Origin: Candidatus Omnitrophota bacterium
Lineage (GTDB): Bacteria > Ratteibacteria > UBA8468 > B48-G9 > JAFGKM01
DNA length: 36,450 nucleotides
Direction: 5' to 3'
Assembly: GCA_023819225.1 (NCBI GenBank)
Contig: JAMWCZ010000003.1
Coordinates: 1 to 36,450 of the forward strand
Shown: positions 2,375 to 33,520 of the stretch, piece by piece
How the letters are laid out: every line of letters starts with the position of its first letter
Position numbering within the stretch: position 1 is the first letter of the stretch
Position numbers and translations under genes: made by a program
Notes under the pieces: generated by a model
What the model was told of the DNA's origin: nothing
The model's input: the letters and a program-made list of their open reading frames with translations, nothing else
Databases searched by the model: none

Positions 2375-2624
2375 TTAGAAAGTGAGAGGTGATAGACACC
2401 CCTCGCCTCAACACTCTCCAAGAGGGAAAAGGGAAATAAAGGAAGTTTATGAATAAAAGGACACCTTTCTGGGAGGACTTAATTATTATTCTTTCTATTT
2501 TTACTCTATGGCCTACAATATTGCGTAGAGAAACATTCTTCTCAAAAATTCTTATGGTCATCTCTTTTATCCTTCTTGTATGGATACTGGCAAGAAGGAT
2601 AAAAAGAATGAGAGATATTTTAAA

Positions 2625-3155
2625 ATGAAAATCATTTTACAGAAATTTTTACTACTATTTACTGTTGTTTTTGTAGCAGGATGTTCTGTAAATCAGGGGG
2701 GGGCTTATTCACGTAAACTTATAAGAGAAGGGGATAGATATTTTTCTGAAGGAGAAATTGATAAGGCGATAGAGTTATGGCAACAGGCACTGGACTATCA
2801 ACAGAAACCGGAACTTTATGAAAAAATAGTAATGGCTTATATTATGAGAAACCAGCTTTCTGATGCAGAAGAATATATCTCAAAGGGTTTGACTTATTTT
2901 CCAAATAATGTTAATCTTTTTTTTAATCTGGCACTTATAAATTTTTACAATGATGACTTTGACAGAGCAAAGAAGAATGTTGATAGGGTGCTGGAAATAA
3001 ACGGATATTATCGTGATGCTCATTTTCTTAAAGGGTTGATGTATGAAAAGGAGGGAGATATTCCTGCTGCAAAAAGAGAGTTTGTTAATGAACTGAATGT
3101 CAATCCTGGTTCAAGAAGAGCATGGAAAAAATTAAGGGAGTTAAAGGATGAATAA
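2625..3155 (+). CDS. TPR-repeat lipoprotein
   Basis: Signal peptide with lipobox FVAGC after MKIILQKFLLLFTVV. TPR-like helical repeats (AIELWQQALDY, AEEYISKGLTYFP, AHFLKGLMYEKEG). The upstream ATG at 2580 is unlikely. Its stop overlaps the next start by 8 nt. Confidence 0.75.
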   Translation: MKIILQKFLLLFTVVFVAGCSVNQGGAYSRKLIREGDRYFSEGEIDKAIELWQQALDYQQKPELYEKIVMAYIMRNQLSDAEEYISKGLTYFPNNVNLFFNLALINFYNDDFDRAKKNVDRVLEINGYYRDAHFLKGLMYEKEGDIPAAKREFVNELNVNPGSRRAWKKLRELKDE

Positions 3156-6100
3156 AAAATTCTTTTATCTGCCTGCTATCCTCATCTTTTTCTTTCAATC
3201 TTTTTTATATTCTGAAGGGCTCAATGAATATATCAGATTTTTTTCTTCTTTTTCTTCCCGTATGCCAGGAACAGAAGGACACAGGTACTCAGCGGATTTT
3301 ATAGAGAAGAAATTCAAGGAAGCAGGGCTTAAAAAGGTAAAGAAGGAAGGATTTAAGTCGGTTATTCCTGTTGAAAGATATGCCTACATTATCGTTGATA
3401 ACAAAAGAATAGATATCCATTGTCTTTGGCCAAATCTTGTAAGAACATCCACAATTCCTCCAGAAGGACTCAAAGGGAAACTTATATATGGAGGCAATGG
3501 AGACCTGAGGAATTTAACAGGAAAAGATATAGAGGGAAACATTGTTGTTCTTGACTTTGATTCAGGGACAAGATGGCAGACGATTGCTATGCTGGGTGCA
3601 AAGGCGTTCATATTTACAGAAATAGGAGATATCACCCGTATTCAAGCAGAGCAAAAATTTGTAAATATCCCGGTTAATATTCCGAGGTTCTATGCTCATA
3701 ATAATAGCAAGATGATTATTGAATTTGCCAGGGAAGAAAAGGAAGTTAATCTATTCAGCAGGATGGATTGGGAGAATGTAACGGACTATAACATATATGG
3801 CTATCTTGAAGGGAGAGATAAGAAACTAAAAGAAGAAATTATTGTCCTGCAGGCATACTATGACAGTGTTAGTGTTGTTCCATCTATTGCCCCTGGGGCA
3901 TCTTCTGCCTGTGGTATATCAGCACTCCTTGATATCCTTGACTATTTTAGTATGAACCCGCCTGCCAGGACAGTGGTTTTCCTCGCTACCTCCTCACATT
4001 TTCAGACAATGAGAGGAATAAATGAGTTTATCCAGAAACACATGAGGAAGGAACCACTTTTTAGAAAGAGAATAAAGGAAGAGGATATTATCCAGCCAAA
4101 ACTTTTTATAGGGCTTGACCTGTCGGATGGTTCGGACAGTTTAGGTATCTGGCATAATTCTTATGACTTCTATACCCAGAGGGTCTTTGCGCCATATGGT
4201 AGAAAGTTTATGGAATATGCAGATAAAGTGAGTAGATATTTAGGGTATAAAAGAGAAGCAGCACTGGTAAACGGGATAAGCCCTGAAAGAGGAATTATAT
4301 GGCAGACATTTCTTCCTGAAAAGATACGAACAGATGGTGAATTAATAATTCTTTCAGGTAATCCAGCAATTTCTTTTGTGACTGTTAATGACGGCAGATG
4401 GCGTGTTGATACTCCTTCTGATACTTATGAAAATCTAAACATTGTCAATATAACAAAACAGGCGGTCTTTCTTAAAGAGATTCTCAAAGTCGCAATTAAT
4501 GACCCTGATTTATTCCCTGAGATTGAATTAGGATTAATAAAGGATAATCTTTATACCCTTAATTCAAAAATAGTAACATTTGACCCTACCAGAAGTTTTG
4601 TTCCGAGTGAGCCAGTGGTTGGTGCGCTGGTAATACCACGGGTACACCCTACCACTATAGTGCTGGGAAAAACATCTATGGGAGTTAGAAATACCCATAT
4701 AGGTATGACCGATGAAAAAGGAAAGGCAGTTTTTTCTTCACTCGGTCTAGCAAGCACCCTAACACTATCCGCTTTTTATATAGATGGAGATAGTGGAGAG
4801 ATTGTGCTTTCTCCTGACCTTGGAGTGGGCGGAGCTGGACAATATCCTGTTTTAGTACCAATGGACTATAGAGAAAAGGACTGGATGATAGTACTTTTTG
4901 AATCAAAGACCATCTCCCTTTCAGGACTTATAGACCCTCAGTATCTTGTTACACTGGATAAAGTAGAAGTGCTTGATATGGCAGATAGTGTCCCAAGTGA
5001 GTATGGATATTATCTGCAATACCCTGGATTTATCCCTTTTATGTGGACCTCCTATTCTGAGCCAATGGGATGTGTATTTGCAAGGGGACATATGAGAATT
5101 AAGATTCTCGGACAGGCAGGACCTCTCGGTAAGCGACTCCTTCTTTTAAATTCAAAGGAAGGGAGTAAAGAAACATCAGAAGGAATGGGATTTGAAGTGG
5201 AAGACACGCCTTTTATATATAATACACCATATCAATCAGCCAGGGATATGATAATTCTTGATGCATACAGAAGAGAAAACTTTGAGCAGTTCGGAATAAA
5301 AAACGAGCGTCTGGCAGAACTTCAAACTGAAGCAAAAAAATTACTGGCAATGGCAGAAGAGGCAAAGGACAAAAAAGATTGGTATGAGTTCTTAAAGTAT
5401 TCAAGGCAGTCACAAGCGATTGAATGCAGAGCTTATCCCGATGTAAAAAATACAGCCAATGATGTTGTAAAAGGTATTATATTCTACTTTATGTTACTTC
5501 TCCCATTTGCTTATTTTGGAGAACGGCTATTGTTCAATTTTGCAAAACTTGAAAAGAGAATTGCAGGGACTTTTGGCATCTTTATAGTTATCTACTGGGT
5601 TATGCGAATGGTACATCCTGCATTCAAACTAACAAATGCCCCTGAGGTAATACTACTTTCATTTATAGTTCTTGCTCTTTCTCTTATAGTGCTATCAATA
5701 GTTGCTTCAAAATTTGAAGAGCAGATGAAACATTTGAAAATGGAATCGTCCAGGGTATATGAAACCGATGTTGGAAGGATTACAGCAACAGCGACAGCGT
5801 TTTCTTTAGGTGTTGCAAATATGAAGAGAAGGCCTATCCGGACTATACTTACAGCCATTACATTAATCCTTCTGACATTTACAGTGCTTTCATTTACCTC
5901 TATCAAGTCATATATGAAATATAACCAGATTATAAGGCCATATAGACCTATATATCAGGGGATTTTACTCAGGGACCGTTCCTGGTCACCGCTAATGGAG
6001 ACCGCACTGGAATATACAGAAAATGAATTTTCAGGAAAAGGGATTATTACACCCAGAGCATGGTTTGTTCTTGATGAACTTGGATACAGAACAGCAGTTG

Positions 6101-7533
6101 AGATAAGGTGGAAGGATGATGCTACATTTGCCTCGGGTATATTAGGACTTTCTCCACAGGAGATTACCCCTGTCAGAAATGCTGTAGTAAATGGAGAGTG
6201 GTTCAGCGACCCGTATGAGAGGTCAGTTATCCTTTCAAAGAAGATGGTTAAGGAACTTCGTCTAACTGATTCAGATATCGGCAGTGCAAGGATATGGATA
6301 TATGGTAGAGAATTTATTTTTAAAGGTATTTTTGATGAAAAACTCCTCAATGATATCAAGGATATGGATGATGAACGGATTACCCCGGTCGATTTTTCAG
6401 TGCTGCCTGAAAGAGAGGTTTCAAAGATAAAAATGGAAAAGACAGCGCAGGTTTTTACATCACAGGCAAAATTAGAGTCATTTGTTCACACAGAAGCAGA
6501 AAATATTGCTATAGTTCCTTTCGGAACACTTATGAATATGAAGGGCACGCTTCAGTCAATAGCAGTTAAATTCAATGATGATGTTGATGGTAAAGGACTT
6601 GTTGAGAGTTTTATATCAAAACTCGCGGTTATCATTTTTGCAGGAATTGGAGAGAAGACATATGTTTATAGCAGTATGGGGCTCACCTCTTTCTCAGGTA
6701 TAAGTAACCTTGTTATTCCCATACTTATAGCTGCTCTAATAGTCCTTAATACTATGTTAGGGGCGGTTTATGAAAGGATAAGAGAGATAGGAACATATAG
6801 TGCTGTTGGACTTGCTCCAGTACATATCTCATCATTATTTCTTGCAGAATCAATGGTGTATGCGGTTATGGGGTCTGTTGCTGGCTATCTTTTAGGTCAG
6901 GTTGTTGCCAGAATTCTTATGGTAACGGGGTTGTTAAAAGGGCTGGTGCTTAACTATTCTTCACTTTCTGCTGTATTTGCAACCCTTATTATATTTATCA
7001 CAGTGATACTTTCAACACTTTATCCTGCGAGAAAAGCAGCCCAGATGGCTGTGCCGGATGTTACCAGAAAGTGGATACTGCCTGAACCCAAAGGAGATAA
7101 TTGGGAGTTTGAATTTCCTTTTACAGTGGCTGAAATTGAAGTCCTTGGACTTTCAACCTTTTTAACCGATTACTTTAATTCATATCAGGATGTCTCTTTA
7201 GGCAATTTCTATACAGGTGGTGCTACCCTTGAATATGAAAAACTTCCATCAGGTAAATATAAATATATTATAGATACAGATATCTGGCTGGCCCCTTTTG
7301 ATTTAGGAGTGAGTCAACACCTGAAACTTACAATGGAACCAATGGGGCAGTATGAGTTTTATACTATAAACCTTATTATGAAAAGGACAAGCGGAGAATC
7401 AACTGACTGGAAACGACTTAATAGAAGGTTCCTTGATGGTATAAGGAAGCAATTCCTTATCTGGAGGACTGTAAGCGGTGATGTTAAGAGGGACTATGCA
7501 AGACAGGGTAAGGAACTCCTGAAAATTACATAA
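3148..7533 (+). CDS. 1461-aa membrane fusion protein: signal peptide, M28/PA peptidase-like ectodomain with degenerate metal ligands, beta-rich segment, 3 TM helices, MacB/FtsX-type permease, and a C-terminal cytoplasmic domain of unknown type
   Basis: One uninterrupted ORF. M28-like motifs: AYYDS, PGASSACG, GNPAISF, DTPSDT. FtsX signature LNTMLGAVYERIREIGTYSAVGLAP with flanking TM helices. MacB-like TM1 is RTILTAITLILLTFTVLSF, followed by a ~270-aa extracytoplasmic domain. Confidence 0.7.
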   Translation: MNKKFFYLPAILIFFFQSFLYSEGLNEYIRFFSSFSSRMPGTEGHRYSADFIEKKFKEAGLKKVKKEGFKSVIPVERYAYIIVDNKRIDIHCLWPNLVRTSTIPPEGLKGKLIYGGNGDLRNLTGKDIEGNIVVLDFDSGTRWQTIAMLGAKAFIFTEIGDITRIQAEQKFVNIPVNIPRFYAHNNSKMIIEFAREEKEVNLFSRMDWENVTDYNIYGYLEGRDKKLKEEIIVLQAYYDSVSVVPSIAPGASSACGISALLDILDYFSMNPPARTVVFLATSSHFQTMRGINEFIQKHMRKEPLFRKRIKEEDIIQPKLFIGLDLSDGSDSLGIWHNSYDFYTQRVFAPYGRKFMEYADKVSRYLGYKREAALVNGISPERGIIWQTFLPEKIRTDGELIILSGNPAISFVTVNDGRWRVDTPSDTYENLNIVNITKQAVFLKEILKVAINDPDLFPEIELGLIKDNLYTLNSKIVTFDPTRSFVPSEPVVGALVIPRVHPTTIVLGKTSMGVRNTHIGMTDEKGKAVFSSLGLASTLTLSAFYIDGDSGEIVLSPDLGVGGAGQYPVLVPMDYREKDWMIVLFESKTISLSGLIDPQYLVTLDKVEVLDMADSVPSEYGYYLQYPGFIPFMWTSYSEPMGCVFARGHMRIKILGQAGPLGKRLLLLNSKEGSKETSEGMGFEVEDTPFIYNTPYQSARDMIILDAYRRENFEQFGIKNERLAELQTEAKKLLAMAEEAKDKKDWYEFLKYSRQSQAIECRAYPDVKNTANDVVKGIIFYFMLLLPFAYFGERLLFNFAKLEKRIAGTFGIFIVIYWVMRMVHPAFKLTNAPEVILLSFIVLALSLIVLSIVASKFEEQMKHLKMESSRVYETDVGRITATATAFSLGVANMKRRPIRTILTAITLILLTFTVLSFTSIKSYMKYNQIIRPYRPIYQGILLRDRSWSPLMETALEYTENEFSGKGIITPRAWFVLDELGYRTAVEIRWKDDATFASGILGLSPQEITPVRNAVVNGEWFSDPYERSVILSKKMVKELRLTDSDIGSARIWIYGREFIFKGIFDEKLLNDIKDMDDERITPVDFSVLPEREVSKIKMEKTAQVFTSQAKLESFVHTEAENIAIVPFGTLMNMKGTLQSIAVKFNDDVDGKGLVESFISKLAVIIFAGIGEKTYVYSSMGLTSFSGISNLVIPILIAALIVLNTMLGAVYERIREIGTYSAVGLAPVHISSLFLAESMVYAVMGSVAGYLLGQVVARILMVTGLLKGLVLNYSSLSAVFATLIIFITVILSTLYPARKAAQMAVPDVTRKWILPEPKGDNWEFEFPFTVAEIEVLGLSTFLTDYFNSYQDVSLGNFYTGGATLEYEKLPSGKYKYIIDTDIWLAPFDLGVSQHLKLTMEPMGQYEFYTINLIMKRTSGESTDWKRLNRRFLDGIRKQFLIWRTVSGDVKRDYARQGKELLKIT

Positions 7534-7563
7534 AAGATAGTAAATATTTACAAAGGATGGATT

Positions 7564-9561
7564 ATGGCGGAAGAGAAAAGAGAAATAGATGCGCATTTGG
7601 AGCCAGAAAGAGTAGAACAGTTTCAAGAAGGGTTTAGCATCCGGACAATAATAGCAGCTCTCTTTATCGGTTTTATTATGCTCCCCGGGGCAATATATTT
7701 AGGACTTATTACAGGTGGTGGAATTGCAGGTGCAGCACAATGGGTTACTGTGATACTCCTTGTTGAGATAGCAAAAAGGTCTTTTATTGAGTTAAAAAAG
7801 CAGGAGGTCTACATTATATATATCCTTGCTGCATCACTTGTAAGTGCAGGTCTTGTCCTTGGGACAGCAGGGCTTACACTTCAAGGTGGGGCATTCAGTG
7901 ACCTGATATGGAAACAATATCTTATACAATCACCGTATGCACAGTCGTTTAACCTTCATAGATATATGCCTTCATGGGCAGTCCCTCCTGCGGGTTCAGA
8001 GGCAATATTGAAAAGGACGTTTCTTCACAGGGCATGGGCAGTTCCTATACTTTTACTTATAATCCACAATGTGCTTTTCAGGATAAATAAGTTCACACTT
8101 GGATATACGGTTTTCCGTCTGACAAGTGACAAAGAAAAGTTGTCATTCCCGATGGCACCTGTTGCCTCTGAAGGGGCTATTGCACTTGCTGAGGTAAGCG
8201 GCAAGAAAGAAACATGGCGATGGCGTATATTCAGTATTTCAGCGATGATAGGGGTTATATTCGGTGCTTTTTATGTAGTTATCCCAACAGTTACAGGGTT
8301 GCTTATGACAAAACCATTTCAACTTTTGCCTATACCCTGGGTGGATTTCACATCAAAGATGGGTGATATGTTTCCCTCATCTATGCTTGGTTTTATGACA
8401 GAATTAGGGGTTATATTTACAGGGTTTGTTCTTCCGTTCTGGGTGGTAACAGGTTCTTTTATTGGTTCTATTCTCGCAAAAACAGTGGGCAACCCAATTC
8501 TTTATAAGGCAGGTATTATAAAGAACTGGCAGCCGGGTATGACAGCCATACCTGCCAATGTGGCAACCAACCTTGACTTCTGGATTAATGCAACTATTGC
8601 AGGTGGTATTGTAGTGGCAGTTATTGGTATAGTAACAATGGTAAAGGTGTTTTTAAGAAGGAAGAAAGAGATAGGAAAAGGGGAAGTATATGAAGAAAAA
8701 CTTCCAGAAGGTAGAGGAGATTATCCTGTATATGTTGCGATAATACTATGGGTGCTTTCAACTGCTATCTATATAGCCATATGTAAAATTCTCGTACCTA
8801 AATTCCCCACTCTTCTTTTTGTATTTTTTGGTTTTATCCTTACACCTTTCCTTACATATACATCTGCGAGGATGTTTGGTATTACAGGAGTTGCAGGAGG
8901 TATATCCTTTCCGATGGTCAGGGAAGGGACATTCATATTGAGTGGATATAAAGGTGTGGATATATGGTTTGCACCAGTACCATATTTTAACCATGGAAGG
9001 GCTACTGAAGAGTTCAAGCAACTTGAACTTACAAGGACAAAATTTACATCCTGGTACAAGGCAGAATTTACTGCTCTTGTTATTATGCTTTTCTGCAGTT
9101 TTCTATTCTGGTCAATTATATGGAGGATGGCACCTATACCATCTTCAACCTATCCTTATGTCCAGAAGATGTGGCCTATGGATGCTATGTTCCAGGCATT
9201 ATGGGCTACAAGTACTGTGGAAGGTGGTAGAAGCTGGATGATAGAGGCGATAAAATTTAAGTATATATTTAATTCTTCCCTTATTGGTTTTGTATTGTAT
9301 TTTATACTTCTATTTTTTAAAGCACCGGTTAGTTTATTTTACGGAATTATTGGTGGAATGTCTATGTTGCCGCATATGGCACTACCAATGTTTTTAGGAG
9401 CACTCCTTGGTAGATTTTATTTTGCGAAAAAGGTAGGACCTAACTGGAGAAGATATACCCCTATTATTCTTGCTGGATATTCCTGTGGTATGGGATTGGT
9501 AGGTATGGTTTCTATAGCGGTTGCCCTGATTGCAAAGACCGTCTTCCAGATAATCTTTTAA
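7564..9561 (+). CDS. 665-aa polytopic membrane protein, OPT (oligopeptide transporter)-like
   Basis: At least 12 hydrophobic segments. N-terminal FSIRTIIAALFIGFIMLPGAIYLGL and LSFPMAPVASEGAIALAE resemble OPT-family motifs. Lies 30 nt downstream of the fusion gene on the same strand. Confidence 0.55.
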   Translation: MAEEKREIDAHLEPERVEQFQEGFSIRTIIAALFIGFIMLPGAIYLGLITGGGIAGAAQWVTVILLVEIAKRSFIELKKQEVYIIYILAASLVSAGLVLGTAGLTLQGGAFSDLIWKQYLIQSPYAQSFNLHRYMPSWAVPPAGSEAILKRTFLHRAWAVPILLLIIHNVLFRINKFTLGYTVFRLTSDKEKLSFPMAPVASEGAIALAEVSGKKETWRWRIFSISAMIGVIFGAFYVVIPTVTGLLMTKPFQLLPIPWVDFTSKMGDMFPSSMLGFMTELGVIFTGFVLPFWVVTGSFIGSILAKTVGNPILYKAGIIKNWQPGMTAIPANVATNLDFWINATIAGGIVVAVIGIVTMVKVFLRRKKEIGKGEVYEEKLPEGRGDYPVYVAIILWVLSTAIYIAICKILVPKFPTLLFVFFGFILTPFLTYTSARMFGITGVAGGISFPMVREGTFILSGYKGVDIWFAPVPYFNHGRATEEFKQLELTRTKFTSWYKAEFTALVIMLFCSFLFWSIIWRMAPIPSSTYPYVQKMWPMDAMFQALWATSTVEGGRSWMIEAIKFKYIFNSSLIGFVLYFILLFFKAPVSLFYGIIGGMSMLPHMALPMFLGALLGRFYFAKKVGPNWRRYTPIILAGYSCGMGLVGMVSIAVALIAKTVFQIIF

Positions 9562-9567
9562 ATCACA

Positions 9568-10971
9568 TTAGATTTCATATTCATATAGATAGTCAGGTAT
9601 TATTATTTCACTCTCCGGTTTTCTATCTCTTAATATACCGGCAAAGTTTAAAGATGATTCTTGTTCACCGTGTATGACAAATATCTTCTCGGGCGGTTTT
9701 TCAAAACCATCTATCCACTTTAAAAGTTCTGTTTTCCCCGCGTGGGCAGAAAATCCATTAATATCTTTAATCGTTGCCTTCACTGGGTATTCTCTGCCGA
9801 GTATTCTAACATTTTCTGGTTTTTCAAGTATCTCCCTGCCGAGCGTCCCTTGTGCCTGGTAACCCACAAAAACAACAGTAGATTCTTCTCTTGTAATATT
9901 TGTTATAAGATGATGTTTTATCCTGCCACCTGTACACATACCAGAACCAGCCATTATTACAACAGAGCCGGATATATAATTGATGCTTTTGGATTCATCC
10001 ACAGTACGTGTAAGTTTTAAAAGAGGGAAGTCAAAAGGAGGTGCCCCTTTTTTTATAAGCAACTGTGTTTTTTCATCAAGATATTTAGGATATTTATTGA
10101 ATATCTGTGTAATATCTATTGCCATAGGACTATCAACAAATACAAGTATGTGAGGAATAACATCTTCTTTCAAAAACCTGCTTAAAAAGTAAAGAATCTC
10201 CTGTGTCCGCTCTATAGCAAAGGTGGGTATTACTATATTCCCACCTCTATTAACAGTTGTATTTATTACTTCTGCAAGTTCTCTTCCTGCGTCTACCTCG
10301 CTTTTGTGGTCTTTATTGCCATAGGTGGATTCCATAAAAACAATATCTGCCTCTTTAAAAATAGTAGGGTCTTTCAAAATAGGTTTGTCCCATCTCCCTA
10401 TATCTCCTGAAAATATAAGTTTTTTCATCTTTCCGTTATGTGTTGCTATCTCAATTTTTATCATCGCAGACCCTAATATATGCCCTGCATCATAGAAAGA
10501 TACATAAACATCCTTAAAAAGTTCAAAGGGTTGTTCATAAGGATATGTTTTGAAAAGAGGAAAGACCCTTTTTGCATCTTCCGCAGTGTATAATGGCAAA
10601 ACAGGAAAGGGTGATTTTCTACCTTCTTTAAGATGCCTTTCCATTTTCTTCTCCGCATCTTCTTCCTGCACCTTTCCTGCATCCTGCAATGCAATTTTAG
10701 CAATCTCAGCAGTAGGTTCGGTACAGAATATATCACCTTTAAATCCGTCATTAACAAGTTTTGGGATGTATCCACAGTGGTCAAGGTGTGCATGTGTAAG
10801 TATAATTGCATCTATTGAAGAAGGGGGAACAGGAAAAGGCAACCAGTTTCTATCTTTTAGTTCTCTTTCCTGAAATAGTCCACAATCAATTATGATATAT
10901 TTGCCTGAGATATCAAGCAAGGTTTTTGAACCAGTTACATTTTTGGTTGCTCCTAAAAACTTTACCCGCAT
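9568..10971 (-). CDS. MBL-fold beta-CASP ribonuclease (CPSF/RNase J-like)
   Basis: 467 aa with an HAHLDHCG (HxHxDH) motif, beta-CASP-type architecture and a C-terminal FSAHAG motif. Confidence 0.8.
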   Translation of the reverse strand: MRVKFLGATKNVTGSKTLLDISGKYIIIDCGLFQERELKDRNWLPFPVPPSSIDAIILTHAHLDHCGYIPKLVNDGFKGDIFCTEPTAEIAKIALQDAGKVQEEDAEKKMERHLKEGRKSPFPVLPLYTAEDAKRVFPLFKTYPYEQPFELFKDVYVSFYDAGHILGSAMIKIEIATHNGKMKKLIFSGDIGRWDKPILKDPTIFKEADIVFMESTYGNKDHKSEVDAGRELAEVINTTVNRGGNIVIPTFAIERTQEILYFLSRFLKEDVIPHILVFVDSPMAIDITQIFNKYPKYLDEKTQLLIKKGAPPFDFPLLKLTRTVDESKSINYISGSVVIMAGSGMCTGGRIKHHLITNITREESTVVFVGYQAQGTLGREILEKPENVRILGREYPVKATIKDINGFSAHAGKTELLKWIDGFEKPPEKIFVIHGEQESSLNFAGILRDRKPESEIIIPDYLYEYEI

Positions 10972-11153: not shown

Positions 11154-11591
11154 ATGCGGTTAGAGAATAAAAAGGCATATTTTAACTATGATATACTGGA
11201 GAAGTTAGAAGCAGGGATTGTTCTAAAAGGACCTGAGGTAAAGTCATTGAGGGAAGGAAGAGGCAGCATAAAAGAATCTTTTGCCCGTATAGAAAACCAA
11301 GAGGTCTTTTTGCACAATTTCTATATAGCGCCATATCCTGCCTCTTTTGAGAAACCAGACCCATTAAGAAAGAAAAAGTTATTACTTGATAAAAGGGAAA
11401 TAAAACACCTCAGAAGGAAATTAGAAGAAAAAGGGCTGACCCTTATCCCACTTACCGTATATTTCAATAAAAGAGGACTTGTAAAGGTTGAACTCGCACT
11501 GGCAAAAGGTAAGAAGTTGTATGATAAGAGAGAAAAGATAAGAGAAAGGGATGTACAGAGGGATATTGAAAGAAGGATGAAACAGGGTTGA
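11154..11591 (+). CDS. smpB: SsrA-binding protein
   Basis: 145 aa. The motifs NKKAYFNY, GIVLKGPEVKSLR and LLLDKREI are typical of SmpB. Sits directly upstream of tmRNA. Confidence 0.9.
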   Translation: MRLENKKAYFNYDILEKLEAGIVLKGPEVKSLREGRGSIKESFARIENQEVFLHNFYIAPYPASFEKPDPLRKKKLLLDKREIKHLRRKLEEKGLTLIPLTVYFNKRGLVKVELALAKGKKLYDKREKIRERDVQRDIERRMKQG

Positions 11592-11616
11592 CAGGAAAGA
11601 TTTTTTAAGGTATATT
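11588..11616 (+). promoter_or_regulatory. tmRNA promoter TTGACA-17-TATATT
   Basis: Consensus -35 and a near-consensus -10. The predicted start is 7-8 nt downstream and coincides with the tmRNA 5' GGGGGCG at 11624. Confidence 0.7.
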
Positions 11617-11623
11617 TTTATAA

Positions 11624-11979
11624 GGGGGCGATACAGGTCTCGACAGGAAGGAAGGAGGGGTAAGGTTGCCTGTAGAGTTTGTCGTGGACTCTTTAAAACA
11701 CGGCAAAAAATAACTGCCAATACGGCAAACGCTCTGGCTGCATAATTATGCAGTCACCTGTCTATAAAGGAGTTCCCTGCTCCTTATAGAACAGGTCGGC
11801 AAACAGGGAATTCTTTTCAGGGTTTATCTTTCTCCCTGGAAAGGATTAACAAAAAGGTTGCGGAAAATATGCGGTGTTCGGAGCCGTCTCTTTTCCTAAG
11901 ATAAAACTCCGGGCTACACAGGTAGATACCTTATCACTACCCTTTCTGGACGCGGGGGCAGTACCCGCCGCCTCCACCA
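11624..11979 (+). ncRNA. ssrA: tmRNA (SsrA)
   Basis: 5' GGGGGCGATACAGGTCTCGACAGG. 3' tRNA-like end GGACGCGGGGGCAGTACCCGCCGCCTCCACCA with a G3:U70 pair. Tag reading frame 11716-11745 encodes ANTANALAA then stop. Confidence 0.9.
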
Positions 11980-12343: not shown

Positions 12344-13465
12344 GTGATGAAAGTTAAAAAAAAAATACTACTGTTGGCCTCTCTGATTATAATCTTACTG
12401 CCATTTTTCTGTTACGCACTTAATATCCGTGAAGAGATAAAAGAGAGAAAAATACCAACCTATCTGATAGAAAATAATTCTTATATATCCCTTAGAAGTT
12501 TACTTAAAATCCTTGGTGCTGAAGATTCTTGGGGTAGAGTTGAAGACAGAATTTTTATAAAACATCAGGATATAGAGATAAAGTTTAAAATCAACAGTAC
12601 CCAGGTTTTTCTTGATAAAAAGGTAGAGTATTTAGGCGTTCCGGTTAAGGAAGTTGAAGGTGATGTTCTTATACCTGTGGATGACTTTAACAATATCCTT
12701 TCTGGTTTTGTAGCAGCACCCAGGGTTTCAAAAGAACCTTCTTTCAAAGAAGAAACAGTTATTACAAAAGATAAAAACAGGAGTTTTATTATACTTATAG
12801 ACCCGGGACATGGCGGGAAAGATGACGGTGCTGTTGGGTATTATGGTTTAAAAGAAAAGTCAGTAAATCTGGATATTGCAAAAAGGATGAAGGAATACCT
12901 TAATAAGGAATTGAGGAGAAATACCAAAGTAGGAATTTATATGACCAGAGAGGAAGATATAGATGTTTCTCTGATGGAAAGGGTTCAGATGGCTAAGGAT
13001 ATAAAAGCAGATGTGTTTTTCAGTATCCATACAAACTCTTCCAGAGACAGAAGGCCTGATGCAGATGGTTTTGAGACATACTATTCTGGAGTAAAGGAAG
13101 ACCTTGTCTTTCTGCCATCTTCTCCGGAGAAGGAAGTATTGGACGAAGGGACTGAGGGGGACTCATCTCTATTAAAAATACTTGACGACCTGAATACTAC
13201 AAGTGCGGTTGATGAAAGCAGGATATTGGCGGATTTCGTTCAGGAACGACTTGCCGAGAGGTTGCTAACACCTGACAGAGGAACGAAACGTAGGGGATTT
13301 TATGTTTTAAGATATACACCTATGCCTGCAATTTTAACTGAGATAGGTTTTATATGCAATCCTAATGTAGAGTGGAATCTAAAAGATGCTGAAGTGAGAC
13401 AGGCAATCGCAGAGGCGCTTGCAAAGGGCTTGCTTGATTATCTTAAATTCAGGGATGTAATATGA
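12344..13465 (+). CDS. N-acetylmuramoyl-L-alanine amidase (Amidase_3) with N-terminal stalk domain
   Basis: Signal peptide followed by IDPGHGGKDDGAVG and FFSIHTNS motifs and a C-terminal GFICNP motif. Start is GTG 12344 or ATG 12347. Confidence 0.85.
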   Translation: MMKVKKKILLLASLIIILLPFFCYALNIREEIKERKIPTYLIENNSYISLRSLLKILGAEDSWGRVEDRIFIKHQDIEIKFKINSTQVFLDKKVEYLGVPVKEVEGDVLIPVDDFNNILSGFVAAPRVSKEPSFKEETVITKDKNRSFIILIDPGHGGKDDGAVGYYGLKEKSVNLDIAKRMKEYLNKELRRNTKVGIYMTREEDIDVSLMERVQMAKDIKADVFFSIHTNSSRDRRPDADGFETYYSGVKEDLVFLPSSPEKEVLDEGTEGDSSLLKILDDLNTTSAVDESRILADFVQERLAERLLTPDRGTKRRGFYVLRYTPMPAILTEIGFICNPNVEWNLKDAEVRQAIAEALAKGLLDYLKFRDVI

Positions 13466-25047: not shown

Positions 25048-25617
25048 CTAAAAAGATGTCTTCTTGCCTAACTTCACACCTGTTACCAGTGGAACCGGCT
25101 CAGCCAATTTAAATGAAGGGTCTGTAGAGCGTGCCCAGAGTGTAATCTTTATGAAAGAGACCTTATCGGTATCGGGTGAAGATATTGGGGGGTTTAACCT
25201 GTTATCTCTTCTGTCAAAATACTCAAACCTTGAATTATAGGGTGGGTCTGTAATAACTTCAACTTTATTATTCGGGTCAAGGTCTATTGTATCTGAACCC
25301 CAGGTAATATTTACCTTACCATCGCTTATAATTACCTCCATCGTCTCTGTGTCTCTTTTAAGATAAACTGCTGTGGTCTCTGATACCTGTGAATCATCCA
25401 GTCCTGTTGAGTGAGAAAATCCCCAGTGTGTTTTATCTCCATAGGTGAGTGTATCCATAATCTGGGAAAGTACCTGCTGGACTTCATTATTTACCACCAC
25501 TATTTTTCTTATCTTTGCGGCTCTTGTATATAGATATGTCACAAGCCCGAAGGCAACAACCATTATAGCCATTGCAACCATTAATTCTACAAGGGTAAAG
25601 CCGTTCTTTTTTTTCAT
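25048..25617 (-). CDS. Prepilin-type (type IV pilin / pseudopilin-like) protein
   Basis: N-terminus MKKKNG|FTLVELMVAMAIMVV is a class III signal peptide with Glu at +5. ATG 25617 overlaps the upstream stop (ATGA). An alternative GTG is at 25623. Confidence 0.8.
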   Translation of the reverse strand: MKKKNGFTLVELMVAMAIMVVAFGLVTYLYTRAAKIRKIVVVNNEVQQVLSQIMDTLTYGDKTHWGFSHSTGLDDSQVSETTAVYLKRDTETMEVIISDGKVNITWGSDTIDLDPNNKVEVITDPPYNSRFEYFDRRDNRLNPPISSPDTDKVSFIKITLWARSTDPSFKLAEPVPLVTGVKLGKKTSF

Positions 25618-26135
25618 TGCCACCCATCCCTTGAAATCAAAATATAGTCATTAAGTATAAGTGCCTTATCTCTTTTTCTTAAAACATATACATCTATCCT
25701 GTGGCTCATTGTTCTCTCTGTATCTGACTGTGTAGCATCTGAAAGGAAACTATTGCTTCCATCATACCTGAAGTTATAACGTCTTACGATATATTTTTCC
25801 TGCATTTCTTTAGGTGTCCAGTCATTTCCATCAGTTGTCGGTTCAACCTCATCAGGTGTTTTATAGGTAGTGCTATCTTTGAGAGGTCTATCTCCAAAAC
25901 TTGCCTGTCTGTCATAATATATGGGTGGAAATTCTATATTTTTAACATCCTCTATTGTATATTGTGCCAGTGCATTTGCCACAAGGATATCATTCGCCTT
26001 ATCAATAATATTAAGATTTGCAGACATTATAAGAAGCACGGTCCCAATAACAATAGCAATCAGAAATATTGCAACCACAAGTTCCAGTACTGTAAACCCT
26101 TTTGCCTTCCTGCCTTCTTTATCCATACTTCCCAT
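25614..26135 (-). CDS. Prepilin-type minor pilin-like protein
   Basis: MGSMDKEGRKAKG|FTVLELVVAIFLIAIVIG. The longer ORF-track N-terminus (to 26312) runs through REP units and is rejected. An alternative ATG is at 26126. Confidence 0.75.
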   Translation of the reverse strand: MGSMDKEGRKAKGFTVLELVVAIFLIAIVIGTVLLIMSANLNIIDKANDILVANALAQYTIEDVKNIEFPPIYYDRQASFGDRPLKDSTTYKTPDEVEPTTDGNDWTPKEMQEKYIVRRYNFRYDGSNSFLSDATQSDTERTMSHRIDVYVLRKRDKALILNDYILISRDGWQ

Positions 26136-26202
26136 CCTATTCTTCCCTTTCCCTATCCCTGTTTGTCCACCTCGCCTTTCTCTCTTCCCTACACCTTTTA
26201 TT

Positions 26203-26274
26203 CCCTCTCCCCATCGGGGAGAGGGCAGGGGTGAGGGGCATCCTTTCTTTTCACTCTCCACTGTGGGGAGAGGG
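26203..26274. repeat. Two REP units between pilin-cluster genes
   Basis: CCCTCTCCCCATCGGGGAGAGGG at 26203-26225 plus a degenerate unit at 26252-26274, each followed by CAGGGGTGAGGGG. Confidence 0.8.
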
Positions 26275-26293
26275 CAGGGGTGAGGGGCCCTCC

Positions 26294-28120
26294 TTACCAC
26301 TTTATCTGCCAACTACCAGGGACAGGAACATACCTCCTTCTGCCCCAGAAAAACCCTTTATATACCCTTGAGTTTTTCATATACGGTTCAGGGTCATAGA
26401 TGATAGAGGTATTTCTGCCTATTTGTAATGTATCTCCTGCAACAAGAATACCTGTAATGGTCTGAGTATTATCATTCAAGGTTATATTCCTGTATGAGTA
26501 GATGCTTCCCCTGATATTAAAATTATTGGCATTTATGTTTACATTTGCACTATTACTATAATTCACAATTGCAAACTGAAAAGGCGGGTCAAAAGGATAA
26601 TTTATTGTAAAAGGACTTCCTATAGTTATAGTTCCGGTTGAAGCAACTACCGCAATCCCCGCCCTCTGGTTTTCCCCAAGGGTAATAGTTGGAGAACTAG
26701 ATATATTTATCGTTCCGGCACTCCCTGAAGAACTGTTGTGTATATATACGACAGCATCATAGTCAGAGTTTGTTGCGTCTATCGTCCCACCTGAGATATT
26801 AATTGTATGTGCTACAGAAGATGTATTATAACAGACACTGCTTCCATTTATAGTCCCTCCACTTACTGTAATATCCTCATTTGAAAGGACATTTCCATTT
26901 ATTGTCCCGCCACTTAATGTAATATCTCCGGTTGCAAAGACATCTCCACTGATTGTTCCTCCACTGATTGTAATAGCCCTACTTGAAAGTACATCCCCCC
27001 CTATATTCCCACTATTTACTGTAATATCCTGGTCACATTTTACCTTTCCAGTGATATTATTACTTAGTATTAGTGCCCCCCCTTTAACAACAAGGTCTCC
27101 GGTTATTGTGATTCCTGACGCTATGGTCAAAGAAGCACCTGTCATATCCAGACAGAGATTAGAATTTGTATTAGTGATTATATCTTTATTTATCGTCAAA
27201 TTCTTTGTTGCTGCTATTTTAAAATAATTGTCAATGGTAACATCACCCGCATTATTTGGAATTTGTGCATCTGCCTCAACAATAATTGTTCTGCCCCCTG
27301 AGTTAAAATCTTCTGGTAAGAGGTTAGAATTATCTCTTCCAAAAAGATATGTTGAGCCATTCCAGTAGATACCAGGGGCAGGGTCAGGGGTATCGTTGAC
27401 ACTAATACCTCCTGGATATGTCGCATTTATCAGCATACCTGTCTCAGTATATGTATCATCATATACACCTGGTGGAGAAGGGAGATTAAGGTCAACAGTA
27501 AAAGAGGATGTAGAGGTTTCAAAATGAACTATATCAGATAAGGTAAAGGTTTCTGTCCATGTGGCTTCTGTCAGTCCAGATGGTTTATTTGTAATAGTTT
27601 CGCTCATTACATTACCTTTAATAGATACATTTGATGGCGGAGTGCCGCTAAAATTCAGATTTTTTGCATATATTGTATGTTTATTAAATGCTTCAGGAAT
27701 ACCACTATAGGCAGATTTAAGGTTATCTCCTGTATGTGCATATCCTTTAACATTTACTGACACCTCTGCTGTTCTTCCTCTGTATGTTCCAGTTGAAACA
27801 ATCTTTGTCTCACAGGATGTGTCTAACACTAATGTTGCTTTTGCCCCTGAAGGAAAACCAGGAAGCACTATATCTTCTGATGGGGTTGTAAAAGCAGGAT
27901 ACTGGCCTGTATCATACTGGCTATAATTCATCCGATAGAGTACTTCCTGTATCCCTGTCTGGGCTATCTGTAGGGCTATATTTTTGTCCTTGTAGAAGTG
28001 GGCTCTTCTTATTGCAGTTGTAGACGAGATAACTACAGCAATGATAAGGGCAGCAAAAATGATTATCATCACAAGCACCATTATCATTGCCACACCATCT
28101 CTACTGTTTTTGTTTTTCAT
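26294..28120 (-). CDS. 609-aa PilX-N-like pilus-associated protein with beta-helical repeat region
   Basis: ATG 28120 is preceded by GGAGGGAGG. The N-terminal hydrophobic helix VAMIMVLVMIIIFAALIIAVVISS followed by ALQIAQTGIQEVLYRM resembles PilX_N. Periodic ITxSGGTIxGDV repeats. The ORF-track extension to 28282 covers the repeat element. Confidence 0.7.
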   Translation of the reverse strand: MKNKNSRDGVAMIMVLVMIIIFAALIIAVVISSTTAIRRAHFYKDKNIALQIAQTGIQEVLYRMNYSQYDTGQYPAFTTPSEDIVLPGFPSGAKATLVLDTSCETKIVSTGTYRGRTAEVSVNVKGYAHTGDNLKSAYSGIPEAFNKHTIYAKNLNFSGTPPSNVSIKGNVMSETITNKPSGLTEATWTETFTLSDIVHFETSTSSFTVDLNLPSPPGVYDDTYTETGMLINATYPGGISVNDTPDPAPGIYWNGSTYLFGRDNSNLLPEDFNSGGRTIIVEADAQIPNNAGDVTIDNYFKIAATKNLTINKDIITNTNSNLCLDMTGASLTIASGITITGDLVVKGGALILSNNITGKVKCDQDITVNSGNIGGDVLSSRAITISGGTISGDVFATGDITLSGGTINGNVLSNEDITVSGGTINGSSVCYNTSSVAHTINISGGTIDATNSDYDAVVYIHNSSSGSAGTINISSSPTITLGENQRAGIAVVASTGTITIGSPFTINYPFDPPFQFAIVNYSNSANVNINANNFNIRGSIYSYRNITLNDNTQTITGILVAGDTLQIGRNTSIIYDPEPYMKNSRVYKGFFWGRRRYVPVPGSWQIKW

Positions 28121-28134
28121 CCTCCCTCCATAAT

Positions 28135-28163
28135 ATTTTACCATAAAAGTCATTTTAATGCAA
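28135..28163 (-). promoter_or_regulatory. Promoter of the pilX-like operon TTGCAT-17-TAAAAT
   Basis: On the minus strand, -35 at 28163-28158 is exactly 6 nt after the shared TACCCTATCTGTAC motif. -10 is at 28140-28135. Confidence 0.5.
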
Positions 28164-28169
28164 TATACT

Positions 28170-28340
28170 GTACAGATAGGGTATATAGTTAATACTTTCT
28201 TATCTAATTTTTTGTTCAAAAATACCCTAACTCTCCCCTCACCCTTCTTGCCCTTACGGGCTTCGGTCACCCGCCTCACCAACTCGGCGGGCGTGCCAGT
28301 AGAGGCTCTTTATTCCTCTACTCGGCACCCCTCTCCCCTC
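28170..28340 (-). repeat. Conserved structured element, copy 2 (inverted partner of 19297-19467)
   Basis: 28203-28340 is the exact reverse complement of 19297-19434. The 14-nt motif is at 28170-28183. Confidence 0.9.
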
Positions 28341-30668: not shown

Positions 30669-31805
30669 TTATGATAAACTGTTACGGAATTTCTTTATCT
30701 CAGGATAATTATCAGTGTTTTCAATATCTTTAATCTGCTGATAAAGTTGCCTTTCCTGCCTTGACAATCTCTCCGGTATAACTACCTTTATCTTTATCAG
30801 AAGGTCGCCCTTACCATAGCCGGACACCCTGGGCATACCTAAATTCTTTAACCTTAATACAGTACCTGTTTGTGTGCCTGGTGGTACCTTTACCTTTACC
30901 TTTCCTGTAAGTGTGGGTACCTCTATCTCATCACCAATGACTGCCTGTGTAACTGTTATTGGAACTTCACATATAATATCGGAATGTATTCTTTCAAAAA
31001 TTTTATCCTTCTCAATAAATACGGTTATATAAAGGTCTCCTTTCGGCCCATTGTATGGACCTGCATCACCCTGCCCTTTTAATCTTAAACTGCTTCCGTG
31101 TTCAATCCCTGCAGGTATCTTTACAAGAATCTTATGCATATTTCTTATCCTTCCAATTCCTTTGCAATTAAGACAAGGGTCTGCTATTATCTCCCCTTCT
31201 CCTTTACACTTCGGACAGGTTGTTGCTACAGTAAAAAAGCCATTACTCTTTACTACCTGTCCTTTCCCCTGACACTGCGGGCAGGTCTTCTTTCCAATAC
31301 CCTGTGGTTTACTGCCTGTCCCCTTACATACAGGACATTCATCATACCTTGAAATATTTATGTGCTTCTCGGTGCCTGTCGCCGCCTCTTTCAGGGTTAT
31401 ATACATCCTGTATTCAAGGTCTGAACCTCTTATCTGCCATTGACGTTTGGTTGTTCTTTCTCCAAACCAGTCAACACCAAAACTATCAGAGAAAAATGTG
31501 TTGAATATATCACCGAATATATCAGAGAAGTCCATCCTGACCCTGGAAAAGTCCTGTGTCCAGTCAAATCCCTGAGGTCCAAAACCCGCATGTCCATACT
31601 GGTCATATATCTTCCTTTTCTCTGGGTCACTTAAAACCTCATATGCCTCTGTTACTTCCTTGAACTTTTCCTCTGCTTGTTTATTTCCAGGATTTCTATC
31701 AGGGTGATACTGCAAAGCAAGGTTCCTGTACGCCTTCTTTATCTCATCAATAGACGCATCTTTCCCAATCCCAAGCACCTCATAATAATCTCTCTTTTCA
31801 TCCAT
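30669..31805 (-). CDS. dnaJ: Chaperone DnaJ
   Basis: J-domain YYEVLGI...HPDRN, G/F region, and four CxxCxGxG zinc-finger repeats. Confidence 0.95.

Positions 31806-31963: not shown

Positions 31964-33520
<1,557 letters not shown>

Follow-up and report, generated by a model that had tools for sequence, protein, structure and literature searches.

We describe a four-gene operon in a 36,450-nt stretch of DNA (the window) from a Candidatus Omnitrophota bacterium of the GTDB lineage Ratteibacteria (assembly GCA_023819225.1, contig JAMWCZ010000003.1, positions 1 to 36,450 of the forward strand). The operon probably encodes the core of a widespread and uncharacterised machine of the ATP-binding cassette (ABC) kind, type VII, with unprecedented fusions and an unprecedented partner. 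Its four translationally coupled genes encode a 59-aa protein with two transmembrane (TM) helices, a tetratricopeptide repeat (TPR) lipoprotein, a 1461-aa giant protein in which an M28/PA-fold ectodomain is joined to a MacB/FtsX-type permease, and a 665-aa OPT-like membrane protein (Table 1). At the level of architecture, our explanation is a widespread envelope machine core of the type VII ABC kind that is served by an ATPase in trans, and we hold it at about even confidence.

An earlier note on this DNA had described the last three of these genes as a unit, with an 8-nt overlap, a 30-nt gap and a convergent gene downstream. All open reading frame (ORF) positions were reproduced. The giant ORF shares its first 8 nt with the end of the lipoprotein ORF, the 30-nt gap before the 665-aa ORF holds an AAGGATG Shine-Dalgarno sequence, and the convergent neighbour at 9568-10971 (-) encodes a beta-CASP/RNase J-like protein. 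Linkage and co-conservation of the genes stand as well, but the count of three does not, since the 59-aa ORF makes four. This ORF belongs to the unit because its homologues precede the TPR gene or the giant gene in related loci and because its stop overlaps the lipoprotein ATG at 2625 as ATGA. The same overlap decides between the two candidate lipoprotein starts, 2580 and 2625, in favour of the latter (MKIILQKF...VAG/C). An AGGAAG sequence resembling a Shine-Dalgarno site stands before the ATG of the 59-aa ORF, and the operon sits after a tRNA-Leu gene and a terminator-like hairpin at 2201-2228.

Co-conservation among relatives, which the earlier note had suggested as a check, was assessed in a survey of 89 loci, each spanning about ±10 kb, in which ORFs were called and labelled by jackhmmer. 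The genes are co-conserved among relatives. Homologues of the small ORF precede the TPR gene (or, if that gene is absent, the giant gene) in 25 related loci; its jackhmmer family X77 holds such a place in 26 loci, and the TPR lipoprotein gene is directly 5' of the giant gene in 28. Pfam gave only noise for the 59-aa protein. The lipoprotein matches TPR_2 (6.5e-16) and TPR_1 (7.7e-12), and its translation satisfies the lipobox pattern [LVI][ASTVI][GAS]C, reading MKIILQKFLLLFTVVFVAG before the C.

Table 1. Genes of the operon and parts of the giant protein, in window coordinates
Feature	Position	Strand	Basis
Small membrane protein of 59 aa (two-TM hairpin), opening the operon	2449..2628	+	Translation; jackhmmer family X77
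TPR lipoprotein, signal peptide and lipobox VAG/C, about 3-4 TPRs	2625..3155	+	Pfam TPR, translation
Giant fusion protein, 1461 aa: ectodomain, 3 TM helices, MacB/FtsX permease, cytoplasmic tail	3148..7533	+	Pfam, hydropathy, models
Signal peptide or signal anchor at the N-terminus, aa 1-22, MNKKFFYLPAILIFFFQSFLYS	3148..3213	+	Sequence; low pLDDT in model
M28 fold with PA-type insert, aa 23-460	3214..4527	+	Model, Foldseek, 1AMP alignment, column counts
Beta-rich domain, aa ~461-690, and stalk of three long helices, aa ~691-772	4528..5463	+	Secondary structure of model
Extra three-TM bundle joining ectodomain to permease, aa 773-853	5464..5706	+	Hydropathy, conserved alignment columns
MacB/FtsX-type permease: TM1 aa 897-919, periplasmic core 920-1178, TM2-4 1179-1295	5836..7032	+	Pfam, phmmer, Foldseek
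Cytoplasmic C-terminal tail, aa 1296-1461, ~165 aa, beta-alpha-beta6-alpha	7033..7533	+	Model, Foldseek, cluster scan
665-aa polytopic membrane protein, probable divergent OPT-superfamily member	7564..9561	+	Sub-threshold Pfam match, orthologues, neighbourhood

The five-part layout that the earlier note had proposed for the giant protein was recovered by hydropathy, Pfam, structure prediction and Foldseek, and both the M28 and the FtsX folds were found in profile as well as structure searches. Hydropathy extends the ectodomain (~750 aa) to about aa 770 and places the extra TM helices at aa 773-791, 805-823 and 831-853, next to a cytoplasmic linker. The resulting order (out, three TM helices, in, TM1, out, TM2-4, in) is consistent with MacB. 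Sequence, fold and motif all place the permease in the FtsX/MacB superfamily. Pfam FtsX (PF02687) matches aa 1189-1300 with an E-value of 8.5e-14 (52.1 bits vs a cutoff of 25.5), phmmer matches MacB (5lil) at E 5e-9, and sequence searches also reach LolF, YtrF and LolC/E. MacB_PCD (PF12704) found no match in the window giant with Pfam; it does match relatives.

For structural comparison, the giant was modelled as two fragments (the N-terminal 775 aa and the C-terminal 702 aa) from a 42-sequence family alignment. The C-terminal model is weaker in the TM region, as expected of a monomer, and confident in the periplasmic domain and the tail. Foldseek paired the permease with MacB (5gko, E 1.6e-9) and also with the MacB-like transporter of S. 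pneumoniae (5xu1); isolated MacB periplasmic domains, 5c59 (TMt 0.52) and 5lj8, were matched at E 1e-5 and TMt ~0.5. The coupling-helix motif YERIREIG (aa 1208-1215) aligns with VTERTKEIG of MacB. Its residues E1209, R1210, E1213 and I1214 are invariant in both family alignments (42 and 25 sequences) and, together with G1221 of the coupling region, in all architectures; the smaller alignment is the one that shows G1221 unchanged, and the larger one does so for G1215.

The cytoplasmic tail is the hallmark of the giant family. A tail-only HMMER scan of 1.84 billion cluster representatives, clustered at 50% identity, matched at least 1,434 clusters at E <= 1e-3, and 1,082 when the limit was set to E <= 1e-10; the tail is called a hallmark because in almost all of these clusters the match lies at the very C-terminal end of a 1,450-3,050-aa protein. 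Together, the permease and the tail are better conserved than the ectodomain in the family alignments. Pfam gave no match to the tail at E <= 1. In the model, the pLDDT of ten-residue blocks of the tail is mostly 74-91, and the order of secondary structure fits a helix-grip fold. The Foldseek matches of the tail are numerous and consistent, and all of them are SRPBCC/START helix-grip proteins, including CoxG (2ns9, E 6e-3), PYR/PYL receptors, Bet v 1, Ups1 and polyketide cyclases. We treat the predicted resemblance of the tail to such a domain as a lead only.

The N-terminal 775-aa model reached a pLDDT of 88.5 and a pTM of 0.88, with the beta-rich domain and the stalk helices running toward the membrane; this stretch yielded no family assignment of its own. 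Its ectodomain matched in Foldseek the aminopeptidase structures 2ek8 (E 8.6e-24) and B. subtilis YwaD/BSAP (6hc6, E 2.4e-22), and further P. aeruginosa PaAP (8acg), along with transferrin receptor 1 (TfR1) and GCPII, relatives that are inactive or specialised. The family profile aligns to the Aeromonas aminopeptidase (1AMP), and nicalin was matched too. The Pfam Peptidase_M28 match (aa 215-325, E 1e-6) covers only profile positions 1-94 of 193. Active-site columns were counted over the 42 family sequences in 1AMP numbering. The zinc ligand His97 is replaced by Tyr (38/42) or Phe (4/42), with Tyr237 in the window protein; at the bridging ligand Asp117 the family has Glu, Asp, Ser or Thr (Ser252); the general base Glu151 is replaced by His in 42/42 (His284); and the ligand Glu152 is replaced by Phe, His, Tyr or Cys (Phe285). 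Asp99 is the sole active-site position retained in all 42 sequences (Asp239 in the window protein). Three of the four alignable zinc-site and general-base positions are thus substituted family-wide, the zinc ligands Asp179 and His256 lying outside the alignable region. Because zinc ligands and the general base are substituted across the family, the ectodomain is most likely an M28/PA fold that lacks the M28 catalytic site, hence a pseudo-peptidase. The M28 assignment of the earlier note therefore holds for the fold and not for a working peptidase, and an active M28 peptidase was rejected on these substituted residues. The old active-site pocket is, to judge from the alignment, still under selection, because Asp239 and His284 are invariant.

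The third large protein is an almost constant genomic neighbour of the giant. In 62 of the 75 loci with enough downstream DNA, the gene for the OPT-like protein is directly 3' of the giant gene, and orthologues beside distant giants remain 56% (L003) and 44% (L001) identical to the window protein. Of the 13 loci in which it is not directly 3', seven have a DUF6785/DUF6784 gene just upstream of the giant gene, and in an eighth (L040) an insertion separates the two. In a MAG labelled Armatimonadetes (L094, 1-11759), two large genes encoding 1324 aa and 930 aa stand between the FtsX-containing gene and the OPT-like gene, and the 930-aa product has faint fn3 matches. DUF6785 and the OPT-like family are distantly related (hhalign probability 86%, E 5e-6). 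The 2120-aa protein P0345 carries a complete DUF6785/DUF6784 protein in frame at the C-terminus of a giant (aa 1481-2111). This is either a Rosetta-stone case that links the giant and DUF6785 families or the result of an overlooked stop codon.

The OPT-like motifs that had been read in the 665-aa protein correspond to a Pfam OPT (PF03169) match of 21.3 bits, which is below the gathering cutoff of 25.8 bits. OPT matches were found in 8 of 29 orthologues (E <= 0.01, best 1e-7), and PGAP names such orthologues 'OPT/YSL family transporter' or 'peptide transporter'. These sequence comparisons indicate a relation to OPT at the superfamily level only.

The giant family is widespread. A scan with one genome per GTDB species found a giant relative in at least 584 species genomes. 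Full-length homologues (1455-1610 aa, 45-89% identity) occur in metagenome-assembled genomes (MAGs) labelled Ratteibacteria, Omnitrophica, WOR-3, Latescibacteria and Gemmatimonadetes, and are named in databases only as "FtsX-like permease family protein", "M28 family peptidase" or "hypothetical". Adjacency of the giant and OPT-like genes spans Ratteibacteria, Omnitrophota, Latescibacterota, Gemmatimonadota and others. Four locus types can be distinguished. Type A, found in the clade of the window, has the order small ORF, TPR, giant, OPT-like; its flanks vary among genomes while the four genes remain together. Type B (L003, L028-L034, L079) reads (small ORF, TPR), giant, OPT-like, (X330), PqqD-like, 215-aa mini-FtsX, ABC ATPase. 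Type C, in Latescibacterota, Gemmatimonadota and Handelsmanbacteria, reads (DUF6785, ~60% of loci), giant, OPT-like, X330, PqqD-like, PAP2-like, and type D, formed by Latescibacterota paralogues, reads TPR, DUF6785, giant. Pfam returned only noise for X330-type proteins. The PAP2-like membrane phosphatase (X206) was considered as a diverged mini-FtsX and rejected, as hhalign gave a probability of 0.1% and PAP2-like motifs were found instead. In 18 loci of Latescibacterota, Gemmatimonadota and Handelsmanbacteria, NusG_II (PF07009) and Hpre_diP_synt_I (PF07456) genes stand directly 5' of the DUF6785-giant pair (for example L001 7096-8009 and L095 2302-3227). A mobile-element or defence origin of the operon was rejected in view of its housekeeping neighbours and of synteny across genomes.

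The ATPase question is central to any account of this system. A motif scan for Walker-A/LSGG agrees with the earlier note that UvrA is the sole Walker-A ATPase in the window. The related statement that the operon has no ATPase partner is true at the window locus, but sister-lineage loci do have an adjoining LolD/MacB-type ATPase. In type B loci, the genes for the PqqD-like protein, mini-FtsX and this ATPase come right after the OPT-like gene. Models of LolD, DarD, YbbA and MacB give the highest scores for the type B ATPase, and those of MacB and LolCE for the mini-FtsX, both proteins staying under the FtsX and FtsE model cutoffs. When the conserved C-terminal 700 aa are placed in a neighbour-joining tree, type B falls on three branches, sister to or outside the type A clade; because these branches bracket type A, adjacency of the cassette to the giant looks ancestral and lost in the clade of the window. 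We infer, rather than observe, an ATPase in trans for the window system; it is favoured because sister loci carry the cassette and the coupling-helix residues are invariant across architectures.

The cassette also exists apart from the giant. Homologues of mini-FtsX, ~57% identical, occur in Gemmatimonadota- and Caldiserica-labelled contigs within a free-standing four-gene cassette with the order X3xx (278-314 aa), PqqD-like, mini-FtsX (211-220 aa), ABC ATPase (L090 8605-11510; L092; L093 8806-11416). Its first gene is homologous to X330 of giant loci (32% identity, E 1e-42), and the cassette appears to be uncharacterised. Copies in Gemmatimonadota-labelled contigs adjoin CDP-alcohol phosphatidyltransferase and polyprenyl synthase genes, and the Caldiserica-labelled copy comes after a bamA-skp-lpxC/fabZ-lpxA-lpxI run. 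Gemmatimonadota carry both giant and free-standing cassette at the phylum level, a co-occurrence that is not shown within one genome. Among the best 120 of 6,630 mini-FtsX matches (E <= 1e-10), none is labelled Ratteibacteria or Omnitrophota, which is uninformative given the number of matches.

On the explanation with an ATPase in trans, the permease would work by mechanotransmission, as do FtsEX, LolCDE, MacB and YbbAP. A LolD/MacB-type ATPase, from a cassette that would be encoded elsewhere in the genome of the window organism, would dock on the coupling helices of the giant and, with the 215-aa mini-FtsX as half-partner, drive movements of the periplasmic domains. ATP hydrolysis in the cytoplasm would be relayed through the four-helix permease to these domains, including the attached pseudo-peptidase. 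The ectodomain may be a receptor for a ligand or partner, a role that recalls EnvC in FtsEX and, among M28 folds, nicalin or the transferrin receptor, and could pass cargo to, or receive it from, the OPT-like protein as the transmembrane path. That the cargo is a peptide or a protein terminus is a tentative proposal by analogy, and so is any direction of transport. Peptide cargo is favoured because three modules (M28/PA, OPT and the PqqD/RRE domain of sister loci) have relatives that handle peptides; lipid or lipoprotein cargo is the main alternative.

Several results weigh against this explanation. Apart from UvrA, the 36-kb window holds no ATPase gene, nor a mini-FtsX or PqqD gene, and none of the three was found within ±10 kb of the giant in ~25 loci of the clade of the window. 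The cassette may be a separate system that is merely adjacent to the giant in some lineages, because the giant loci of Latescibacterota and Gemmatimonadota keep their own X330-PqqD pair without an ATPase. The invariant Asp239 and His284 may leave room for a non-canonical catalytic site in the ectodomain. The SRPBCC-like matches of the tail are weak (E 6e-3 to 3e-2, from a whole-fragment query), the OPT score of the window protein is sub-threshold, and searches of PDB sequences with the 665-aa protein, alone and as a 29-sequence profile, matched no solved structure.

The absence of an ATPase gene from the window and from loci of its clade is the starting point of a rival explanation that we regard as unlikely, in which the machine is independent of an ATPase and the permease is a scaffold or conformational relay coupled to a proton-driven OPT-like transporter or to its own tail. 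The constant four-gene content amid changing flanks and the giant loci of Latescibacterota and Gemmatimonadota, which also lack an adjoining ATPase, would agree with it, and the highly conserved, family-unique cytoplasmic tail could stand in for a nucleotide-binding domain (NBD). However, the motif by which MacB, LolC and FtsX dock their NBD is invariant in the giant family. Nor does the tail replace the ATPase, since it is also present in the sister lineages that have an adjoining LolD-like ATPase and mini-FtsX. As far as we know, every characterised FtsX-family permease uses an ATPase. There is a small chance that the permease of the window clade lost its ABC ATPase and became coupled instead to a proton-driven OPT-superfamily protein and its own helix-grip domain. 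If true, no earlier "type VII ABC" permease would have been known to work without an ABC ATPase, and the operon would encode a mechanotransmission system that is secondary-energised and has a built-in pseudo-peptidase receptor.

Two further rivals keep the ABC logic and assign the machine another task; we consider both improbable. One is a wall-remodelling regulator of the FtsEX-EnvC type, in which the pseudo-peptidase would activate or position a peptidoglycan hydrolase while the OPT-like protein takes up stem peptides. FtsEX is described as working via degenerate or autoinhibited hydrolase partners, namely EnvC, PcsB, CwlO and RipC (PMC7668044, PMC10694151, PMC6705773), and such a precedent would suit the pseudo-peptidase. 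An Amidase_3 gene at 12344-13465 (+) lies 2.8 kb 3' of the operon in the window, and in L004 genes for Amidase_3 and glutamate racemase are just upstream in a different gene order. One giant-family member carries LysM and NMB0315 (M23-related) domains in Pfam, and ftsY directly 5' of five cassette-bearing giant loci recalls the ftsYEX arrangement. However, the amidase linkage is confined to the clade of the window, is absent in L006 and may be plain synteny, and LolD and MacB models score higher for the ATPase and mini-FtsX than those of FtsE and FtsX, which they do not reach at cutoff. We also know of no M28 fold that activates peptidoglycan hydrolases.

The other rival, no better placed, is extraction of lipids or lipoproteins in the manner of LolCDE or YbbAP-TesA, where the tail would bind lipid and the TPR lipoprotein would be a partner or substrate. 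The resemblance of the tail to SRPBCC/START lipid-binding folds including Ups1, the PAP2-like phosphatase gene 3' of the giant locus in 21 Latescibacterota and Gemmatimonadota loci, the free-standing cassette beside phospholipid or lipid A genes, and lgt and lspA genes that abut the operon in L006 all point this way. YbbAP-TesA, which pairs a type VII ABC system with a hydrolase (PMC12646458), provides a precedent. However, the lipid links are all either weak (Foldseek E about 1e-2) or confined to certain lineages, the neighbourhood holds no LolA/LolB-like or MacA/TolC-like genes, and the OPT-like partner and the M28/PA fold are given no role. Finally, an active membrane-anchored aminopeptidase that feeds an oligopeptide importer, with the FtsX part as a mere anchor, is very improbable: the fold matches to true aminopeptidases, the OPT similarity and the invariant Asp239 and His284 would suit it, but substitutions occupy each of the His97, Glu151 and Glu152 positions, the window protein has Ser in place of Asp117, the Pfam M28 match is truncated, and a permease and tail conserved above the ectodomain are ill-suited to an anchor.

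Comparison with known systems supports the placement within type VII ABC systems and also sets the operon apart from them. The giant shares with MacB the four-TM FtsX fold, the periplasmic core between TM1 and TM2, the ER..EIG motif and the N-in/C-in topology; MacB-type proteins are its best matches in sequence and fold, and its sister loci have a LolD/MacB-like ATPase. Unlike these systems, the window giant has no fused or adjoining NBD, and it adds a ~770-aa N-terminal ectodomain, three TM helices and a conserved cytoplasmic tail of 165 aa. Its locus lacks MacA/TolC and LolA/LolB neighbours, its obligate partner is OPT-like, and in sister lineages it probably teams up with a 215-aa mini-FtsX whose periplasmic domain is all but missing. 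Coupling of an FtsX-family permease to a periplasmic hydrolase-fold module is also seen in FtsEX with EnvC, PcsB, CwlO or RipC and in YbbAP-TesA, and the hydrolase-fold module of EnvC is catalytically dead and regulatory. The module of the giant, in contrast, is M28/PA rather than LytM/M23, CHAP, NlpC/P60 or SGNH, and is covalently fused to the permease; its target enzyme is only hypothetical.

The ectodomain shares its fold and PA insert with PA-domain M28 aminopeptidases such as YwaD/BSAP, PaAP and that of Aneurinibacillus AM-1 (Foldseek E 1e-24 to 1e-18), and, as in TfR1 and nicalin, the zinc-ligand set is missing. It differs from the aminopeptidases in its fusion to a permease and in the YYDS, PGA and invariant His at the Glu151 position, which point to a conserved non-canonical site. 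With the OPT family (PF03169) and DUF6785/DUF6784, the 665-aa protein has in common a polytopic form of ~660 aa, the OPT matches of its orthologues and the hhalign link to DUF6785; it differs in its sub-gathering score and its fixed pairing with the giant. To our knowledge, fixed pairing with a permease fusion is not a feature of OPT transporters. The earlier note had found no matching characterised system, and NCBIfam, PDB and literature searches likewise gave no characterised homologue. NCBIfam has no equivalog for the lipoprotein, the giant or the OPT-like protein, every match being far under cutoff, and the combination of FtsX, M28 and an OPT-like protein was not described in any paper found.

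Other features of the window were also noted. The last 29 nt of tRNA-Leu(GAG), at 2131-2159, are repeated 172 nt downstream at 2303-2331 with 27/29 identical positions, in the GC-rich spacer before the operon, and this partial repeat may stem from a past integration event or from the decay of a tRNA copy. The smpB gene is directly followed by a tmRNA gene (11624-11979) in a block at 11154-11979 (+), which adjoins the operon in either orientation in relatives (L004 vs L007). The Amidase_3 gene of the window also encodes a Cu_amine_oxidN1 domain and, through the rearrangements seen in the clade, remains only a few kb away from the operon; in L004 the amidase and glutamate racemase genes stand side by side at 5254-7234. 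At 25048-28282 (-), two proteins with prepilin-type N-terminal methylation motifs are followed by a 662-aa protein with a weak bactofilin match, which may form a pseudopilin-related cluster. A complete solitary 16S rRNA gene (31966-33519, -) is followed by dnaJ (30669-31805, -); the window contains no 23S or 5S gene, and the rRNA genes appear to be unlinked.

The fixed trio of a MacB-like permease, a dead M28/PA receptor-like domain and an OPT-superfamily protein is undescribed in any known system. The giant family is large and is found in several poorly studied, largely uncultured phyla, among housekeeping genes. Once known, the cargo would mark out a new envelope pathway for Ratteibacteria, Omnitrophota, Latescibacterota and Gemmatimonadota, and the family would show if FtsX-fold permeases are able to share an ATPase or to dispense with it.

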